Source: a bacterium (lineage in GTDB: Bacteria; Hydrothermota; Tepidihabitantia; Tepidihabitantales; Tepidihabitantaceae). Taken from it: DNA of 31,520 nt. Both the position numbers and the translations under genes were made by a program. The notes beneath the pieces were generated by a model. The model searched no databases, had not been told where the DNA came from, and worked only from the letters and a program-made list of their open reading frames with translations. This document shows, one piece after another, positions 1,145 through 8,721 of the stretch (the stretch's first letter is position 1; each line of letters starts with the position of its first letter). The DNA lies in contig JAWOHE010000012.1 in NCBI GenBank assembly GCA_046485285.1, forward strand, positions 1-31,520. Direction: 5' to 3'.

Positions 1145-2896
1145 GTGCCCCGGACGCCGAAGAAGAAGCCTGCCCGCCGCAGTCCGGCCGCGCCGCCGCG
1201 CCGGCTCGAACTACCCGGCCCGCGCTGGCTCGTGCCGCTGGCGCTCGCGGCCATCGTCCTCGTCGGCCTCGGCCTGCGCGCCGCCGACCTGCGCGCCGAC
1301 CCGCCGCCGGACCTGTCCTGGAGCTTCGCGCCCTGGACCGACGAGGGGCTGAACGCCTACTCGGCCCGGAGCCTCGTCCTCCACGGCGCCTGGAAGACCG
1401 ATGACTTCTTCCCGTTTGTCGTCTACCCGCTGTTCAACCTGCTCGTCGCGCTCGCCTTCCGGCTGTTCGGCGTCGGCTTCGTGTCGGTGAAGCTCGTGTC
1501 GCTCCTCGCCGGCCTCGGCTCGATCGTCGCCCTCTACTTCCTCGTCCGCTCCTCCGCCGGCCGGCTCGCCGGGCTCATCGCCGCCCTGCTCCTCGCGCTC
1601 TGCTACCCGCACGTGATGTACACCCGGCTCGGGCTCGTCGAGTCACTGCAGGTGCTGTTCCTGCTGCTCACCGGGCTGTGCTGGGCGAAGGGTCTCGAGC
1701 GGCCGTGGGCGCTGGCGCTGTCGGGCCTGTTCGCCGCCGGCACGGTCCTGCTCGTCAAGATCTCGGCGCTGTTCGTCGCCCCGGTGATGCTGGTCATGCT
1801 CATCGTCCTCGCCGTCGAGGCGCGGCGCGACCCGGCGCGGAAGGCCGGCCTCGGCCGCGACGTCGGGCTGTTCTTCGCCGGTGTCGGTGCGGCGGTCGCG
1901 GTCTGGCTCGCGGTCGTCGTCCTGCCCCACAGCCGCGACTACGTCACCTACGTCCTGCGTCACTCCTTCGAGTCGCCGGCCGGCCACCCGGCCGACCCCG
2001 CCGCCTACCTCCTCAACACCTTCACCGTCGGCGCGGCGTCGCGGCTCTTCCCGAAGCTCGGCGTCACCGCGCTCGCCGGCTTCCTGCTCCTGCCCGGCCT
2101 CGGCCTCTCGCGCCGGCCCGCGTTCCGCTACCTGCTGGCGTGGTTCGTCTTCGCGCTGCTGATGCTCGGCTGGATGAACTACCGCCCGCCCCGCTACGAG
2201 GTCATCCTGCTCCCGCCGTTCATCGCCGCGGTCGCGGCCGGGATCGCCCGGCTCATCGAGGACGGCACGCTCCTACCGGCGGCTCGCGCCGGCTGGCTGC
2301 GCGCGCTGGGCTGGACGGCGTGGCTCTGGCCGCTGGCGGTCCAGCTTCTCATCCACAGCGGCGGCTTCGGCGGCGCACTCGCCTCGTCCACGGCCGGCGG
2401 CGCGCTCGGTGCCGGGCTCGGGGTCGCGGTCGCGCTCGCCGCGGTCAGCCTCGGTCTCGCGCGGCTCGCCCGTTCGGGCCTGTCGCTCGCCCGGCCGGCA
2501 GGCCGGTTCGTGCTCGCCGGCATCCTGCTCGCGCTCATCGTCCGGCTCGACCTCGCCCAGTTCGCGCGCTGGCACTCGAACCGCACCCACGACATGGTCC
2601 GCTACTCGCAGGAACTCGACCGCGTCCTGCCCGACGGCGCGGTGCTCGCCGGCGGCTGGGCGCCCGCCCTGCTGGTGGAGTCGCGCAAGCGGGCGCTCTG
2701 CCTGACCGACTGGGCCAACAACGACGACCCGGTCGGCCGGTTCGGGATGACCCACCTCGTCTCCCACGAGGAAAACGACATCAACCTGCTCGAGAAGAAC
2801 CGCCCCGGCCTGCGCGCCCTCCTGCGGCCGGTCTGGCAGGGCCGAGTGCGCGGGACGCGGCTGACCGCCTTCGAGCTCGCCCGGCCCGGGGAGTAG
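1145..2896 (+). CDS. Glycosyltransferase family 39 / ArnT-PMT-like multi-pass membrane protein
   Basis: Many hydrophobic segments, DE motif after first TM (WTDEG), YP.F..L loop; start moved from 1070 to GTG 1145 because of the promoter. Confidence 0.8.
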   Translation: MPRTPKKKPARRSPAAPPRRLELPGPRWLVPLALAAIVLVGLGLRAADLRADPPPDLSWSFAPWTDEGLNAYSARSLVLHGAWKTDDFFPFVVYPLFNLLVALAFRLFGVGFVSVKLVSLLAGLGSIVALYFLVRSSAGRLAGLIAALLLALCYPHVMYTRLGLVESLQVLFLLLTGLCWAKGLERPWALALSGLFAAGTVLLVKISALFVAPVMLVMLIVLAVEARRDPARKAGLGRDVGLFFAGVGAAVAVWLAVVVLPHSRDYVTYVLRHSFESPAGHPADPAAYLLNTFTVGAASRLFPKLGVTALAGFLLLPGLGLSRRPAFRYLLAWFVFALLMLGWMNYRPPRYEVILLPPFIAAVAAGIARLIEDGTLLPAARAGWLRALGWTAWLWPLAVQLLIHSGGFGGALASSTAGGALGAGLGVAVALAAVSLGLARLARSGLSLARPAGRFVLAGILLALIVRLDLAQFARWHSNRTHDMVRYSQELDRVLPDGAVLAGGWAPALLVESRKRALCLTDWANNDDPVGRFGMTHLVSHEENDINLLEKNRPGLRALLRPVWQGRVRGTRLTAFELARPGE

Positions 2897-2899
2897 CCG

Positions 2900-4258
2900 A
2901 TGACGGCGCGCGGCTTCGAACGGAAGAACCTCATCCAGACCGGTGTCGCGCTCGCGCTCGGCGTGCTGGTCTACCTCGTCCCGATACCCGGCATCCCGGA
3001 CCCGGCCAAGCGCTGCCTCGCCATCCTCGCGGTCGCCTCGTACCTCTGGGTCACCGAGGCGGTCCCGCTCTTCGCGACGGCGTTCCTCGTTGTCCTCGCC
3101 GAAGCGCTCCTGCTCTCCGGCCCGCTCAAGCTCGGCTTCCAGGTCTTCCTCGCCCCGTTCTTCGACCCGGTGATCATGCTCTTCCTCGGCGGGTTCATCC
3201 TCTCCCAGGCTCTCGCCAAGTACGACCTCGACGGCCTGCTCGCCTCGGCCATCCTGCGCCGGACCGGCGCGAAGCCGAAGAACGTCCTGCTCGGAATGAT
3301 GGCGGTCGCCGCCTTCCTGTCGATGTGGATGTCGAACACCGCCGCGACCGCCCTGCTCGTCGGCCTCGCGCTGACGATCATCCGCCGGCTCGACGCCGAC
3401 GACCCGTTCCGGGTCGCGCTCATCCTCGGCATCCCGTTCGCGGCCAACATCGGCGGCGTCGCGACGCCGATCGGCACCCCGCCCAATGCCATCGCCATCG
3501 GCATTCTTGCCGAGCGCGGCATCCAGGTCAGCTTCGTCCGCTGGATGGCGATCGGCCTGCCGGTCACCGCCGCGATCTTCCTCGTCCTCTGGCGGCTGCT
3601 GCTTCGGCTCTTCCCGGCCCGGGCGCAGTCGGTCGCGCTGCCGCCGCCGGGCGATACCCGACTCGACGCCCGCCAGTGGACAATTGCCGCGGTCTTCGCC
3701 GCGACGATCCTGCTCTGGCTGACCGCCGAGTTCCACCGCCTGCCGTCGGCGGTCATCGCGGTCATCCCGGCTTTCGTCTTCACCGGCCTGCGCATCCTCG
3801 ACAAGGAGGACTTCGGCCGGGTCGGCTGGGACATCCTCATCCTGATGGGCGGCGGGCTGTCGCTCGGCGTCGCGATCCGCGAGTCGGGCCTGACCGACTG
3901 GGTGCTGACCCTGATCCGGCTCGGCGGCGTCAACCCGGTCCTGCTCACCGCCGCGCTCACCGTCGTCGCGATGGTCGTGACGACGTTCATCTCCAACACC
4001 TCGACCGCCGCGCTGCTGCTGCCGCTGGTCGCCGGCCTCGCGCCCGACCCGGTCGTGCCGGTGCTGGCGGTCGCCATCGGCGTCTCGGTCTCGATGGTCC
4101 TGCCGGTCTCGACCCCACCCAACGCCATCGCCTACGGCTCGGGGCTGGTATCGGTGCGGACGATGGCCCGGGTCGGGCTCATCCTGTCCGCCATCGCGCT
4201 GGTCATCGTCGTGCTCGGCGTCGTCGGCCTGGCGCGCCTGCTCGACTACGCTCATTAG
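2900..4258 (+). CDS. DASS/SLC13 family sodium:anion (dicarboxylate/sulfate/phosphate) symporter
   Basis: Two SNT motifs (MSNTAATA, ISNTSTAA), TPIGTPPN and STPPNAI hairpin motifs. Confidence 0.92.
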   Translation: MTARGFERKNLIQTGVALALGVLVYLVPIPGIPDPAKRCLAILAVASYLWVTEAVPLFATAFLVVLAEALLLSGPLKLGFQVFLAPFFDPVIMLFLGGFILSQALAKYDLDGLLASAILRRTGAKPKNVLLGMMAVAAFLSMWMSNTAATALLVGLALTIIRRLDADDPFRVALILGIPFAANIGGVATPIGTPPNAIAIGILAERGIQVSFVRWMAIGLPVTAAIFLVLWRLLLRLFPARAQSVALPPPGDTRLDARQWTIAAVFAATILLWLTAEFHRLPSAVIAVIPAFVFTGLRILDKEDFGRVGWDILILMGGGLSLGVAIRESGLTDWVLTLIRLGGVNPVLLTAALTVVAMVVTTFISNTSTAALLLPLVAGLAPDPVVPVLAVAIGVSVSMVLPVSTPPNAIAYGSGLVSVRTMARVGLILSAIALVIVVLGVVGLARLLDYAH

Positions 4259-4270
4259 AAGGGAGGCATC

Positions 4271-4633
4271 GTGGAAAGCGCCAAGTCCGACCATTGCATG
4301 AACTGCAACGCGACGAGCGTCACCAACCTCGTCCACGTCCGCACCGGCGAGCCGGTGCGCGTCTACGTCAAGTGCAACGCCTGCGGCTCGTACGTCGCCC
4401 GCTACACCCTCAGCCGCTACACGTCGGACCAGCCCTACGAGTCCCTGCTCCGGCTGCTCCGGCAGTACGCCTACGCCTCGGGCAAGCGCTGCCTCGAGGA
4501 GGTCGAGGAGTTCGGCACCGCCATCAGGGCCGAGTTCGAGCGCGTCGAGCGGCTCGTCGCCGCTTCCGAGGAGAAGCGCCGGGTCGAGGAGATGATCGAG
4601 GACGCACGCCGGCCCGACAAGCCGGAAGGCTGA
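4271..4633 (+). CDS. Small hypothetical protein with CxxC...CxxC zinc-ribbon and helical C-terminus
   Basis: GGGAGG SD at 4261-4266, GTG start; CMNC and CNAC motifs; codon usage matches neighbours. Confidence 0.75.
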   Translation: MESAKSDHCMNCNATSVTNLVHVRTGEPVRVYVKCNACGSYVARYTLSRYTSDQPYESLLRLLRQYAYASGKRCLEEVEEFGTAIRAEFERVERLVAASEEKRRVEEMIEDARRPDKPEG

Positions 4634-5251
4634 TCAGCCGCCGCGCCGCTCCCGCACGAACAGCAGCGGGAAGGCAATGTCCGAGAAGGTGCAGGGCAGC
4701 CAGACCGCGACGAGCAGGAACGCGAACAGCCCCAGGTACTTCACCGCCGGCAGCGTCCCGTCGAACGCCATCCCGAAGTGCGCGAGCGACGCGACCGTGC
4801 TCAGGAGGACGTGGGCGAAGTGCGGCGCCCGGGTCGTCGGCCGGAACCAGGATATCGCGATGCCGGCCAGCGCCGCCGGGTTGACGAGATACCAGAGCTC
4901 GATGAAGCCGACGTGTGCCTCTGCCCCGGGCAGGCCCAGCAGCCGCTCGCCGAGGTACGGGATGAGCGAGTCGGACAGCGTCCCGATGCCGACCGAGCCG
5001 AGGTAGCCGACAACCAGCAGCAGCCAGGGGTTGCACCGCGTCCGGCCGCCCTCGCACTTGTAGAGCCCGTACATCGCCGAGGTCGCCATCGCGCTCGCGA
5101 ACACGTGCAGCGGGTGGAAGGTTGCGAACAACCGGTGCGACACCGCGTCGGGCAGGCGTCCCAGCGGCACCAGCAGCGCGACGCCGAGCGCCGCCCCGCC
5201 CAGGGTCCAGGGCAGGTGGTGCCCGAGCTCGTGCAGGATGCGGCGCATCAT
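4634..5251 (-). CDS. His-rich multi-pass membrane protein, putative metal transporter
   Basis: About 6-7 hydrophobic segments; HELGHH, FHPLHV, PHFAHV motifs; ATG 5251 overlaps the Fur-family stop (ATGA). Confidence 0.75.
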   Translation of the reverse strand: MMRRILHELGHHLPWTLGGAALGVALLVPLGRLPDAVSHRLFATFHPLHVFASAMATSAMYGLYKCEGGRTRCNPWLLLVVGYLGSVGIGTLSDSLIPYLGERLLGLPGAEAHVGFIELWYLVNPAALAGIAISWFRPTTRAPHFAHVLLSTVASLAHFGMAFDGTLPAVKYLGLFAFLLVAVWLPCTFSDIAFPLLFVRERRGG

Positions 5252-5691
5252 CGCCGCGCCGACTTCGCCCGGCAGGCCGGGCACCGGCCCTCGACTTGCA
5301 TCGTGTGGCTGCTGACCCGGTACCCGGTCCGGCGCTCGACGCGCCGCCGCTCTGCAGCCGGGAAGGCGCAGCCGATGACGTCGACCCGGCCGCAGCCGGT
5401 GCAGACGATGTGGTGGTGGTGCCGGCCCGGCTCGGCGCCGCAGGCGGCGTAGCTTCGAACCCGGTCCGCCCGCTCGACCCGGGTCAGCAGCCCGGCCCGG
5501 ACCAGTTCCTCGAGTGCCCGGTAGACCGTCGGCAGGCCCAGCCGGCCCATCCGCGGCCTCAATCGGGCGTGGACCGCTTCAGGGGTCAGCGCCCGCCCGG
5601 TCCGCAGGAGCAGGCCGGCGATCGCCAGCCGCCGGGGCGTTGCCTTCCGGCCGTCGGCGCGCAGTGCCGACCGCACCGCCGCCTCATCCAT
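5248..5691 (-). CDS. Fur-family transcriptional repressor (Zur-like)
   Basis: TPRRLAI, GLPTVYRALEEL wHTH, HHHHIVCTGC and C-terminal CPAC. Confidence 0.92.
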   Translation of the reverse strand: MDEAAVRSALRADGRKATPRRLAIAGLLLRTGRALTPEAVHARLRPRMGRLGLPTVYRALEELVRAGLLTRVERADRVRSYAACGAEPGRHHHHIVCTGCGRVDVIGCAFPAAERRRVERRTGYRVSSHTMQVEGRCPACRAKSARR

Positions 5692-5712
5692 AGATGGAAC
5701 TCACTTCCATTT
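5692..5712. promoter_or_regulatory. Palindromic operator ATGGAA-N5-TTCCAT, likely Fur/Zur autoregulatory box
   Basis: AGATGGAACTCACTTCCATTT fills exactly the space between the -10 hexamer and the ATG of the regulator; AT-rich in a high-GC context. Confidence 0.75.
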
Positions 5713-5740
5713 ACTGTACCGGCGCCGGCCCCGGCGTCAA
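5713..5740 (-). promoter_or_regulatory. Promoter TTGACG-16-TACAGT
   Basis: cgtcaa 5735-5740 and actgta 5713-5718 on + strand. Confidence 0.7.
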
Positions 5741-5771
5741 GCGCCGGGGCCGGCGAGTCGATGCCTGCTCG

Positions 5772-7103
5772 CTACTCGACCAGCGCGAACCGCCGGGTGA
5801 CCGCCGTCGCGCCGACCGCCAGCCGGCAGAAGTAGCTGCCGGCGGACACTCGCGCCCCGTCGGGGCCGGTGCCGTCCCAGTGCAGCGACCCGTTCGTGCC
5901 CGGGGTTCTGCCCCGGAGGAGTTCGCGCACGACCCGGCCGTCAACGCCGACGATATCGATCTGCACCGGCTCGTCCCCGGGCGCGACGTACTGGACGACG
6001 ACCCCCCGGGCCGTCACTGTCGGGATGAACAGCGCCGGGTTGGACCTCGTCTGCACCTGCCAGACCGGGGCCGTCACCGCGACGCTGCCCGGGTGTATGT
6101 AGCTTGCATCCGAGAGATACAGCCCCACGCCACACTCTCCGCCATAGACCAGGAAATTACCGTTCCCCGAATCCCAGGCGCCGCAGCTGTTCCGGCGCGG
6201 CTGGGGGACGTCGCCGCCGGCCGCGAACCGGGTCCACGCGAGGCTCGGGACGTCAAGCTCATACAGGTCCGCCAGGAAGTTCGGGGCCCAGCCGCCGAAG
6301 ACGTACAGCTTCCTGCCGTCGCCCGACTGGGCGTGGGCGAAGCCGGCCCGCTCCGCCGGGGGATTGCCGCTGGGTGCGAGCTGGGTCCACCGCTCGGAGC
6401 CGGGCGTCAGGTCAAGCTCCCAAAGGTCTCCGTAGAACGTGCCGCCGGCCTTGCCGCCATAGACCAGCAGCCGGTCGCCGTCGGCATCCAGCACCGCTGC
6501 GCCGTCGTAGCGTGCCGGCGGTCGCCGGCCCGAGACCGCTATCTGTCGCCAGGCCAGGCTGTCGAGCCTGAGTTCCCAGACGTCGTCCTGCGCGCCCGAG
6601 GACGCGTAGCCGCCAAAGATGATGAGCGAGCGGCGGCCGGGATGGTAGGCGGCGAACGGGTAGGCGCGGGCGCTCGGCGGGCTCCCCGAGGGCGCCAGCG
6701 ATTCCCAGTTCGGGTTTCGCGGTACGAGGTTGAGCGCCCAGACGTCGTTGACCAGCGCCCCGAATGCCGGCGAACCGCCAAAAACTATCGCCCGGTTGCC
6801 CGGCGGGTCGATGACCATCGCGCAGTCAGCGCGCCCTGAGGGCGGCGTCCCGGCCGGGCGCAGTGGCGACCAGCCGGAATACCCGGCGTTGCCGGCCGGC
6901 ATCTGCCAGACATCACTGTAGTAGCGGTCGTCGGCGTAGACCGACGTGCCCCCGAAAAGGATGACCCGAGCGTTCGCGCTGTCGAAGACCATCCGCGCGG
7001 CACAGCGTGCCGGCGGGCTCAGGGTCGTCCATGCCTGCGCGTGCGACCGGCCCGCAGCAAGCAGCAGGGCCAGGCACGCGACTGCGGTGCCAAGGCTTTT
7101 CAT
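5772..7103 (-). CDS. Secreted kelch-repeat (beta-propeller) protein with C-terminal FlgD-Ig/sorting-like domain
   Basis: Signal peptide MKSLGTAVACLALLLAAGRSHA; six PPxR...FGG...DVW repeats; tail VDGRVVREL...WDG...SAGSYFCRL. GGAGG SD before ATG 7103. Confidence 0.88.
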   Translation of the reverse strand: MKSLGTAVACLALLLAAGRSHAQAWTTLSPPARCAARMVFDSANARVILFGGTSVYADDRYYSDVWQMPAGNAGYSGWSPLRPAGTPPSGRADCAMVIDPPGNRAIVFGGSPAFGALVNDVWALNLVPRNPNWESLAPSGSPPSARAYPFAAYHPGRRSLIIFGGYASSGAQDDVWELRLDSLAWRQIAVSGRRPPARYDGAAVLDADGDRLLVYGGKAGGTFYGDLWELDLTPGSERWTQLAPSGNPPAERAGFAHAQSGDGRKLYVFGGWAPNFLADLYELDVPSLAWTRFAAGGDVPQPRRNSCGAWDSGNGNFLVYGGECGVGLYLSDASYIHPGSVAVTAPVWQVQTRSNPALFIPTVTARGVVVQYVAPGDEPVQIDIVGVDGRVVRELLRGRTPGTNGSLHWDGTGPDGARVSAGSYFCRLAVGATAVTRRFALVE

Positions 7104-7129
7104 TGCACCTCCCGTGTGATGCTCGCCCG

Positions 7130-7157
7130 ATTCTAGCGCCCGGCGGCGGGGTGTCAA
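7130..7157 (-). promoter_or_regulatory. Promoter TTGACA-16-TAGAAT
   Basis: tgtcaa 7152-7157, attcta 7130-7135. Confidence 0.75.
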
Positions 7158-7200: not shown

Positions 7201-8676
7201 TTAGAGCGACTTGAGACAGGCGAACAGCGTCCGGAGCGGCACGCCGGTCCCGCCCGCCGGCGCGTAGTCCCAGCCTTCCTTGGTGAAGGCCGGCCCGGCG
7301 ATGTCCATGTGCACCCAGGGTATTCCCTTGTCGACGAACTCCCTGAGGAAGAGCCCGGCGATGATCGTCCCGGCGTTCATCGGCTTGCCGATGTTCTTGA
7401 TGTCGGCGACCTTGCTCGCGATGTGGGGCCGGTAGGGCTCGGCGAGCGGGAGCTGCCAGAAGAACTCGCCCTGCTCCGCGCCCAGCCTGATGATGCGGTC
7501 GACCAGCGCCTGGTCGGTCCCGAGCAGGGCGGTGTACTCGTCGCCGACCGCGACCACGGCCGCGCCGGTCAGCGTCGCGAGGTCGAACATCACATCCGGT
7601 TTGAGCGTCGAACCGTAGGCCAGCGCGTCGGCCAGGATCAACCGGCCCTCGGCGTCGGTGTTCAGCACCTCCGAGGTCTTGCCGCCGAAGTGACGAATGA
7701 CGTCGCCCGGCTTCTGGGCGCTGCCCGACGGCAGGTTCTCGACCAGCGGCACGAGCCCGTGAACCTCGAGCGGCAGGTCGGCGTCGCCGAGCAGCTTGAA
7801 CAGCCCGAACACGGACGCCGCGCCCGCCATGTCCTGTTTCATCCCGTCCATCGACGGCCCGGGCTTGAGGTTGAGCCCGCCCGAGTCGAACGTCACGCCC
7901 TTGCCGACCACCACGACCCGCTTCTTCGCCTTCCGCTTCGGCCGGTAGTCGAGGTGCACGAGGCAGGGCGGCTCCTGTGAGCCCGCGCCGACCCGCAGGA
8001 TGCCGTTCATCCCGCGCCGGACAAGCTCGTCCTTGCGCAGGACCTCGACCCCGATGCGGTCCGGCTTGGCCAGCCAGGTTGCCAGCTCGGCCATCATCTC
8101 GGGCGCCTTCTGGCTCGGCGGCTCGTTGACGAGGTCGCGTACGTAGCAGACCGCTTCGGCGACCGCGGCCGCCTCGCGGGCCGCGCGATCGAGCTCCGCC
8201 TGCGCCCCGGCCGGCGCGAGCAGCGTGAGCTGAGCCGGTGGCCGGCTCTCGTCGTCCCGGACCCGGCGGTGCTCGATGTAGCGGTAGCTGCCGAGGAGGA
8301 CGCCTTCGACCGCGGCCGCGGCAAACCGCGTCGCCGGGCCGGCGGCAAAGCCGACCCCGGGCAGCAACAGCCCGAGCTCCTCGACGCCCATCTCCTCCGC
8401 CGCCTTGGCGGCCTTCGCGGCCGCGGCGCGCACCCGGTCGGCCGAGTACTCGGCCCGCTTGCCGAGCCCGGTGAGGATCAGCCGCCGGCGCCCTTTCGCC
8501 GCCCTGAGCACGACGACACGCTTGAGCTGGCCCTTGAAGCCCTCTTCCGCGGCCACTGACCGGAAGGCCGCCGCCTCGGCCTGCCCGAGCCCGGCGATGC
8601 CGGGCCGGTCCTCGAACGCGAACGCGGCCCGGAACCGGCCGCTCCACTGACGCGCGGAACGCACTCTGACTTTCAC
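7201..8676 (-). CDS. pepA: Leucyl aminopeptidase (M17)
   Basis: VGKGVTFDSGG, MKQDMAGAA, NTDAEGRL, DLATLTGA, HMDIAG; AAAGGAG SD before GTG 8676. Confidence 0.95.
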   Translation of the reverse strand: MKVRVRSARQWSGRFRAAFAFEDRPGIAGLGQAEAAAFRSVAAEEGFKGQLKRVVVLRAAKGRRRLILTGLGKRAEYSADRVRAAAAKAAKAAEEMGVEELGLLLPGVGFAAGPATRFAAAAVEGVLLGSYRYIEHRRVRDDESRPPAQLTLLAPAGAQAELDRAAREAAAVAEAVCYVRDLVNEPPSQKAPEMMAELATWLAKPDRIGVEVLRKDELVRRGMNGILRVGAGSQEPPCLVHLDYRPKRKAKKRVVVVGKGVTFDSGGLNLKPGPSMDGMKQDMAGAASVFGLFKLLGDADLPLEVHGLVPLVENLPSGSAQKPGDVIRHFGGKTSEVLNTDAEGRLILADALAYGSTLKPDVMFDLATLTGAAVVAVGDEYTALLGTDQALVDRIIRLGAEQGEFFWQLPLAEPYRPHIASKVADIKNIGKPMNAGTIIAGLFLREFVDKGIPWVHMDIAGPAFTKEGWDYAPAGGTGVPLRTLFACLKSL

Positions 8677-8721
8677 GATGACTCCTTTCACATCCGGATG
8701 CCTGTCGCGGTCCGTCCCTAG

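Follow-up and report, generated by a model that had tools for sequence, protein, structure and literature searches.

What does a two-gene operon do for its host when its first gene encodes a Fur-family regulator and its second a membrane protein that no domain library recognizes? The operon occupies positions 4634–5740 of a 31,520-nt stretch of DNA from a bacterium of the Hydrothermota (contig JAWOHE010000012.1 of assembly GCA_046485285.1), and the whole of that stretch is called the window here. An earlier note, made from the letters alone, had proposed a new metal transporter under a self-repressing regulator. Our own answer, held with modest confidence, is that this is a zinc-repressed (Zur-type) operon whose membrane protein is an uptake permease of a new family for divalent metals, most likely zinc. 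What carries it is the gene layout, the conservation of the operator, the links of the regulator's subfamily to zinc-type uptake genes, and the conservation of the membrane family together with its His-rich inserts. The regulator and its operator belong to a known type; the membrane protein represents a family that has no name, no library model and no solved relative.

Layout of the operon and its operator

The numbered elements of 4634–5740, all read on the minus strand, are as follows; L112 is a metagenome locus with a closely related gene pair.

5735–5740, minus strand: −35 hexamer TTGACG (promoter scan; L112 has the same hexamer)
5713–5718, minus strand: −10 hexamer TACAGT, with a 16-nt spacer to the −35 (promoter scan; identical in L112, where the spacer is 17 nt)
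5692–5712, no strand assigned: 21-bp operator palindrome, AAATGGAAGTGAGTTCCATCT in its minus-strand reading (sequence reading, uniqueness and conservation in L112)
5248–5691, minus strand: Fur-family (Zur-like) regulator of 147 aa (Pfam FUR match and alignments)
4634–5251, minus strand: six-helix membrane protein of 205 aa from an unnamed family, a candidate divalent-metal permease (open reading frame and AlphaFold2 model)

Every element of the complete module that had been described, from promoter through operator and regulator to the membrane gene, was thus recovered. The sigma-70-like promoter is the sole promoter-like site between 4400 and 5900, where the promoter scan of shuffled sequence leads one to expect 0.0. 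The palindrome AAATGGAAGTGAGTTCCATCT begins directly 3′ of the −10 hexamer, stops 1 nt short of the regulator's ATG and, as the earlier note held, spans the predicted +1; it is imperfect, though, in that the arms ATGGAA/TTCCAT match perfectly while 8 of the 10 pairs around the central G are complementary. The regulator's TGA overlaps the first ATG of the 205-aa frame as ATGA, in keeping with the translational coupling of a membrane protein of about that length to the regulator.

Taken alone, 6-nt arms at a fixed spacing are common by chance, about 8 such palindromes being expected by calculation in 31.5 kb, and hence the significance of the operator rests on its uniqueness and conservation. 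The genome scan that the note had suggested found ATGGAA-N5-TTCCAT once in the window's own genome (2.34 Mb, in an 88%-complete assembly) against 0 in the control, so that the regulator's sole site there is its own operon. With the outer arms included, no other site in this genome has 2 or fewer mismatches to the operator, and at 3 to 4 mismatches there are 4 sites in the genome and as many in the reversed control, no more than background. As for conservation, the products of L112 share 76% (membrane protein) and 67% (regulator) identity with those of the window, and the locus carries a perfect 10-1-10 palindrome, AAATGGAATTGAATTCCATTT, in the same place behind the same −35 and −10 hexamers. 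The operator is conserved in Omnitrophota genomes as well, as described below.

Two further features of this promoter region were observed. In L112 (2543–2551), the regulator frame lacks a start codon downstream of the palindrome; an ATG and a TTG, its only candidates, are inside the palindrome, 2 and 8 nt past the −10 hexamer, and the mRNA may be nearly leaderless, or the promoter may have to be read differently. In the window, the −35 hexamer is overlapped by a GC-rich inverted repeat (5723–5755) whose 14-bp arms, CGCCGGCCCCGGCG / CGCCGGGGCCGGCG, match perfectly around a 5-nt loop, and L112 keeps a shorter version of it with 10-bp arms, by eye. Although it lacks a T run, this repeat could serve the upstream gene as its terminator, and once formed it might hide the −35. 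A search with Rfam at gathering score over the window and 20 loci with long upstream gaps turned up nothing but tRNA and tmRNA, hence no riboswitch.

The regulator subfamily and its targets

Membership of the regulator in the Fur/Zur family, as claimed before, is confirmed by Pfam FUR (PF01475), which matches residues 14–133 at 69.7 bits against a cut-off of 23.1. The solved structures nearest to it are, about equally, Fur (9ire, E 8e-16) and the FurB/Zur of Mycobacterium tuberculosis (2o03, E 1e-15), and Streptomyces Zur (3mwm, E 1.5e-14) ranks next. The protein has a winged-helix N-terminal domain together with C84, H91–H94, C97xxC100, C108, H129 and C137xxC140, of which the two CxxC pairs of the structural site are invariant across an alignment of 9 Fur-family sequences. 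Aligned with 2o03, its C84, H92 and H94 fall on C76, H81 and H83, its H91, H93 and H129 on H80, H82 and H118, and its Ala112 on Glu101, all of them residues of 2o03 that we take to be metal ligands. Its scores stay below cut-off for every NCBIfam equivalog, the best being those for Bacillus-type Fur (74.3 bits against 220) and PerR (64.6). According to a passage of PMC6103462, every known major Zur sensory site consists of two N, one O and one S ligand, and the Cys is essential; C84 is kept across the six members of the subfamily to which the window regulator belongs.

Three genomes of the Omnitrophota (G151, G152 and G153) have the same gene pair, at loci L070, L076 and L025. Each contains one clear orthologue of the window regulator (97.9–106.5 bits, the other Fur paralogues scoring at most 61.7 bits), and the orthologues all share Y-x-x-C84, HHHH, C108 and H129. 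The operator consensus AAATrGAAAT-n-ATTTCyATTT stands before these regulators and their targets. The only two perfect matches in G151 lie 180 bp apart before an operon of TonB-dependent receptor, ExbB, ExbD and TonB, and the first of them directly follows a TTGACA-16-TAATAT promoter, the same layout as in the window; the regulator gene has one more operator 14 nt ahead of it, and another separates it from the membrane gene. G152 likewise has operators before the regulator and between regulator and membrane gene, and another lies 34 nt ahead of a gene whose product, at 37% identity to the window regulator (E 4e-34), is a further member of the subfamily; after this gene come ZnuA (219.8 bits), an ABC ATPase and ZnuB (265.4 bits). 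In this ZnuA a His-rich loop immediately precedes the DPH motif and the third ligand position is a His, which are presumably the features of a Zn-type ZnuA. None of the best NCBIfam matches reaches its cut-off: they are AdcA, MntC (Mn-type), ZnuA and AztC for this binding protein, and AztB for the permease. Counted over whole genomes, matches to the query AAATRGAANNNNNTTCYATTT with 2 or fewer mismatches are in no excess (10, 26 and 3 forward matches in G151, G152 and G153 against 19, 22 and 8 in the control).

The order of the operon in G153 is regulator, signal-peptide protein, membrane gene. Neither Pfam nor NCBIfam has a family for the middle protein (L025, about 2740–3981); with its signal peptide, coiled stretch, His-rich segment and barrel-like end (...FALAF), it could be an outer-membrane channel that captures metal. 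Taken together, the targets of the subfamily would make up the pattern of a zinc-uptake regulon. We read the window regulator, which belongs to a distinct Fur subfamily, as Zur-like because that subfamily is linked to znuABC and has operators at the TonB-dependent receptor operon and at the membrane gene; the reading comes from gene linkage and not from a metal assay. The same links to uptake support the note's idea of a Zn/Ni/Co permease, but its qualifier "stand-alone" is doubtful, since relatives pair the membrane gene with outer-membrane uptake parts.

Two further Fur-family genes can be mentioned. In the window's own genome, a second Fur-family gene adjoins a HerA-like helicase gene. One in G151 (L148, contig C1, 263500–269500) adjoins a peroxiredoxin gene and a gene for the manganese exporter MntP, before which there is an operator-like site with 2 mismatches; this unit looks like a PerR-type one.

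The membrane protein family

The membrane protein has no NCBIfam match, and its only Pfam match at E ≤ 0.1, to DUF7520, scores 13.3 bits where the cut-off is 27. The note's statement that it cannot be assigned to ZIP, NiCoT or CDF therefore stands, and extends to the other Pfam and NCBIfam families. (The search reference, 4634–5254, starts one codon early, and residue numbers follow that translation.) Among 20 divergent relatives, none matched a Pfam or NCBIfam family over the six-helix core, although one (P0125) has a fused C-terminal methyltransferase. Three others have sub-threshold matches to ZIP, and kinship with ZIP was considered on that account and rejected: the matches reach 17.9–20.7 bits against 35.1 and fall on the His-rich inserts of these three.

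The family is large. In a collection of 90% clusters there are 971 relatives at E ≤ 0.001, and the 120 listed have no Pfam domain and no given name other than "hypothetical" or "uncharacterized". At least 491 representatives of 50% clusters belong to it, 98 of them at E ≤ 1e-30, and relatives occur in at least 569 stretches of species-representative genomes. The hosts include Omnitrophota, Atribacterota, Elusimicrobiota, Planctomycetia, Desulfobacteraceae, Syntrophales, KSB1 and two Methanosarcinales; of 151 genomes from the window's own phylum, 32 encode a member, and the closest named relatives among the matches listed are labelled candidate division WOR-3. In the ESM Atlas, 28 of 30 matches, including the three best, fall in clusters without a common Pfam family. 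Full-text literature searches by regulon and transporter topic, which were not by sequence and could miss a family going by another name, returned no description of it; this is weak evidence that the family is unpublished.

Conservation was scored in 71 sequences, namely the query plus 70 full-length representatives taken from the 150 listed. In the first half of the protein, E9 is kept in 67, H13 in 70, H47 and H50 in 69 each, S54 in 68, S94 in 63, D95 in 68 and P99 in 67; in the second half, H114 in 64, H145 in 67, H148 in 68, S152 in 70, P187 in 69 and C188 in 70; and, further on, S191 in 68, D192 in all 71 and P196 in 70. Position 189 is Cys in 63 of 71, giving most members a PCC motif, and Thr in the window. 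The motifs ELxxH, HPxH..S, SDxxxP, PHxxH..S and PCxSDxxxP, each kept in 63–71 of the 71, all occur in the window protein in this order, and the ligand motifs that had been quoted are all there with near-invariant core residues. Of HELGHH, which had been listed with them, only the E, the L and the last H are conserved, and a reading of it as the HExxH of a zincin was rejected, the first His not being conserved.

Lys/Arg counts place the N-terminus, loops 2-3 and 4-5 and the C-terminus inside the cell, and loops 1-2 and 3-4 outside. Divergent members carry His/Asp/Glu-rich inserts in loop 1-2 (P0227, P0263, P0205, P0235 and P0253) or in loop 3-4 (P0142), as well as His-rich C-terminal tails. By this topology the inserts face outward, which suits metal capture for import. 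One copy departs from the pattern: that at L111 (genome G147, from the window's taxonomic family) lacks the helix-6 motif and has no regulator gene upstream. Past helix 5 its frame runs on into about 420 residues of unnatural composition, for which reason it was rejected as a fusion; the copy is probably broken or misassembled.

The AlphaFold2 model of the window protein (mean predicted local distance difference test score, 88.8; predicted template modeling score, 0.88) has six long helices. The check proposed in the note, a profile and Foldseek search, led to no characterized family. Foldseek against the PDB found nothing at E ≤ 0.001 (best, TRIC, E 0.23; ZIP, E 2.2), and a profile search of PDB sequences gave two chance-level matches only (E 0.3 and 0.54). 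With VIA-align, the best matches are prokaryotic TRIC channels (5h36, 5wtr and 5wud; Z 8.2–9.5 over 129–133 residues, root-mean-square deviation 2.8–3.1), the next unrelated entries scoring Z 5.9–6.2 and BbZIP Z 4.5–4.6. The top TRIC alignment (Z 9.5, deviation 3.1, 132 residues) is shifted by one helix, and its Z is below the level of about 13 advised for helical bundles; for these two reasons we do not claim kinship, and the match would indicate similar architecture. The internal two-fold repeat that had been seen by eye is supported in that HPLHVxxS of the N half aligns with PHxxHVxxS of the C half, though the signal is weak (hhalign, E 0.012 over 31 columns). Internal duplication is likely.

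Carrier or enzyme, and the known systems

The operon would work as follows, going by Fur-family behavior. With metal plentiful (most likely Zn2+), a dimer of the regulator would bind the 21-bp palindrome and block RNA polymerase, since the palindrome comes directly after the −10 and covers the expected transcription start. With metal scarce, the regulator would leave the DNA, one mRNA would be made, and the ATGA overlap would tie translation of the second gene to that of the first. The membrane protein would be inserted with both ends in the cytoplasm, and its two three-helix halves would gather ELxxH (helix 1), HPxHVxxS (helix 2) and SDxxxP (helix 3) with H..E (loop 3-4), PHxxHVxxS (helix 5) and PC(C/T)xSDxxxP (helix 6) into a His/Asp/Cys-lined path along which a dehydrated divalent cation would move inward. 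In this scheme we infer the repression by metal-bound regulator, the transport, its direction and the identity of the metal.

Gene neighborhoods were sampled at 111 loci (80 from species-representative genomes, 29 from the window's own phylum and 2 from metagenomes), and neighbors were counted on the same strand within 150 nt. A Fur-family gene of one of two types lies directly upstream of the family gene in 6 of the 111, the window's type in L070, L076, L112 and L113 and another in L103 and L106, whose promoters have TTGCAA-like repeats; in L025 and L044 a Fur-family gene is one or two genes off. In L044, FeoA and FeoB are directly upstream (FeoB by Pfam, FeoA by eye only), and in L071 a ZIP gene lies directly downstream, overlapping the family gene's stop. 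ArsR-type and Rrf2-type regulators are near the family gene in one locus each. The case for a carrier consists of the two Fur types in several lineages, the operator before the membrane gene, the operons with outer-membrane parts, FeoAB and ZIP, the outward His-rich inserts and the invariant His/Asp/Cys set within the helices, and that for zinc in the window of the subfamily's Cys-containing site and its link to the His-loop ZnuA system. More tentatively, and here we would put the chances at somewhat under half, the 205-aa protein may be the founder of a new superfamily of six-helix metal channels or permeases with an internal repeat, His/Asp/Cys-lined and unrelated to ZIP, NiCoT, CDF, Nramp or Feo, which would serve anaerobic bacteria and Methanosarcinales as a main inner-membrane route for zinc, in some lineages for ferrous iron, downstream of TonB-dependent receptors or His-rich outer-membrane barrels.

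A good many findings weigh against a zinc permease. Some of them concern the regulator: the NCBIfam Zur model (PRK11639, E. coli-type) gives it 32.5 bits against a cut-off of 167, with Fur and PerR scoring higher, and Asp62 of 2o03 aligns with its Thr70, so that it lacks the Asp which acts as a ligand in the actinobacterial sensory site. The ZnuA-type protein of G152 scores almost as high on a Mn-type model. Besides the operon, the window's genome encodes a ZIP protein and, behind a NikR-domain protein, a ZnuABC-like system, and the operon would then be an extra starvation-induced route and not the sole one. Moreover, loci without an adjacent regulator have no strong operator of the window's type, and a weight matrix from ten operator sites, run over the 111 loci, reached 24 bits only at the four loci that supplied training sites, with scattered sites of at most 16.2 bits elsewhere; hence this operator type does not explain the regulation of most family members. 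Others concern the membrane protein and its neighbors. No solved relative carries bound metal. The Feo link, in one lineage, points to Fe(II), and a HypA neighbor occurs in 2 of the 111 loci. The commonest neighbors are not metal genes at all: a metallo-β-lactamase (MBL)-fold protein is upstream in 24 of 111 loci, a class I S-adenosylmethionine (SAM) methyltransferase of about 220 aa is downstream in 13 and a second type in 3, and MinD-like 4Fe-4S ATPases (6 loci), radical SAM proteins (7) and YggS (6) recur. Finally, family members are fused to methyltransferase (P0125, P0272, P0276–78 and P0284) and to phosphatidylserine decarboxylase (P0275 and P0279–83), and the recurring triad of MBL-fold protein, membrane protein and methyltransferase keeps an enzymatic role in play.

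That role would make the membrane protein a metalloenzyme, or the partner of an enzyme with, for example, a lipid or methyl-acceptor substrate; its invariant His/Asp/Cys would form a catalytic metal site, and Zur-type control would reflect metal need or zinc sparing. We consider this improbable, though it is the rival we take most seriously. The MBL-fold, methyltransferase and radical SAM neighbors and the two kinds of fusion speak for it, as do neighboring PEMT and UbiA in single loci, and identity of about 50% across phyla and two domains of life would fit a tightly constrained active site. Against this, the His-rich outer loops and tails of divergent members are typical of metal carriers and not of enzymes, no Pfam or NCBIfam enzyme family is matched, and operons tie the gene to outer-membrane uptake parts, FeoAB and ZIP. 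The fusion partners, moreover, are diverse, other long forms having a MinD-like ATPase, a NifX-like domain or a pilin-like tail, and this variety suggests downstream genes merging behind a protein with a cytoplasmic C-terminus.

If the architecture and uptake role are right but zinc is not, the substrate could be Fe(II), Ni(II), Co(II) or Mn(II), or the range could be broad as in ZupT. This we judge slightly less probable still. It would accord with the regulator's best NCBIfam scores, which are those of the Fur and PerR models, with the Fur-FeoA-FeoB operon that the family gene closes in L044, the two HypA loci, and the different Fur type and TTGCAA-like repeats of L103 and L106; the G151 receptor scores best, though below cut-off, on a model for copper-type TonB-dependent receptors, and the family lives in anaerobes, whose demand for Fe(II), Ni and Co is high. 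The subfamily, on the other hand, retains the Zur-type Cys, one of its members fronts the ZnuA with the His-rich loop before DPH and His as third ligand, and G151 and G152 have 6 and 7 Fur-family genes, which leaves other paralogues free for iron and peroxide. Least probable by a long way is a protein that exports or detoxifies a metal or metalloid and that the regulator switches on or releases at high metal. Streptomyces Zur can activate an exporter at high zinc (PMC5472717), most members have the PCC motif in helix 6, and the methyltransferase, thioredoxin and disulfide-reductase neighbors recall metalloid detoxification operons, but the operator lies over the −10 and +1, which is a repressing position, the same operator stands before uptake genes (the TonB-dependent receptor operon and znuABC), and the His-rich inserts face outward.

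Several observations on surrounding genes can be added. The triad of MBL-fold, six-helix and methyltransferase genes is complete in 12 of 13 loci (L027, L054, L058, L061, L087–L090 and L092–L096), with tight spacing (gaps of 3 nt, overlaps of 11–20 nt); L054 has the methyltransferase, but its upstream gene is the Rrf2-type regulator instead of the MBL-fold protein. The best NCBIfam match of the triad methyltransferase is the DVU_1556 family, below cut-off. A Cys-rich DUF6485 protein of 64–70 aa (CxC..C..CCxC..H) is near the family gene in 7 of 111 loci, directly upstream in five (L010, L035, L046, L085 and L086) and further off in L040 and L044. In contig C69 of the window's own genome (G000; L117, 461–1384), the ZnuA-like ABC system is preceded by a 307-aa frame in which the NikR ribbon-helix-helix and nickel-binding domains occupy only the C-terminal 130 residues; either the start codon was called too early, or the protein has a long N-terminal extension. 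In the window itself, no znuABC genes adjoin the operon by an open reading frame and Pfam reading, in agreement with the note. A 120-aa protein with two CxxC pairs (zinc-ribbon-like; 4271–4633, plus strand), for which no Pfam family scores above cut-off, is tail-to-tail convergent on the membrane gene, and L112 has a 120-aa frame in the same convergent place (3614–3976, minus strand). On the other side, a 461-aa Kelch-repeat beta-propeller protein with a weak FlgD-Ig-like C-terminal end (5772–7157, minus strand) separates the operon from an M17 aminopeptidase gene (7201–8691, assigned from synteny and by eye); L112 and L111 have the M17-type gene directly upstream instead.

Metal uptake in the uncultured anaerobic phyla (WOR-3, Omnitrophota, Atribacterota, Elusimicrobiota and anaerobic Planctomycetota) and in methane-cycling archaea is annotated almost wholly by likeness to model organisms. 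If our reading is true, a widespread and conserved carrier family from outside the domain libraries would fill a gap in genome models of trace metals in sulfidic, metal-poor habitats, hundreds of "hypothetical proteins" would gain a function, and a new small fold would be at hand for the study of metal selectivity. The regulator-operator pair is also a compact, well-defined test case for a Zur type outside the phyla studied so far.

Among known systems, TRIC channels are the best structural match and share with the window protein the plan of a small helical membrane protein made from an internal three-helix repeat, which in the window protein is likely. Identity is 5–12%, however, and the window protein has six helices instead of the seven (3+3+1) of TRIC, helices 2–6 of the model pairing with TRIC helices 1–5; TRIC channels, moreover, are not known to have His/Asp/Cys ligand motifs and conduct monovalent cations. 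ZIP proteins (ZupT, BbZIP; PF02535) would resemble it as small secondary or channel-like divalent-metal carriers with in-helix His/Asp/Glu ligands and His-rich loops, often under Zur control, and the relative at L071 is co-transcribed with a ZIP gene. They differ in having eight helices, the window protein gives no PF02535 match at E ≤ 0.1, and its Z to BbZIP is 4.5–4.6. NiCoT/HoxN, HupE/UreJ and CDF proteins are likewise small and polytopic, with His/Asp signatures in their helices and often His-rich loops; none of these families is matched in Pfam at E ≤ 0.1, and the signatures that we take to mark these carriers (HX4DH, HPxxGxDH and HxxxD) are absent from the window protein.

The closest likeness of the operon as a whole is to the Zur operons (zur-znuABC of actinobacteria and Bacillus), which likewise have a repressor of the Fur family, its structural site made of four Cys and its sensory site, putative in the window protein, of Cys and His, an AT-rich palindromic operator over the promoter, presumed self-regulation and control of what would be an uptake gene, and in G152 the subfamily itself fronts znuABC. 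Zur boxes are described, in a passage of PMC6103462, as palindromes of 7-1-7, 9-1-9 or 23 bp; compared with the mycobacterial Zur consensus (PMC7174638), the window-type half-site AAATrGAAAT has its conserved G/C one position nearer the center. The window regulator also differs in lacking the actinobacterial sensory-site Asp and in falling short of the NCBIfam Zur cut-off, and its predicted target differs too, being a single six-helix protein from a family of its own in place of an ABC system. If that protein is a carrier, it would add a new family to a known class of systems.

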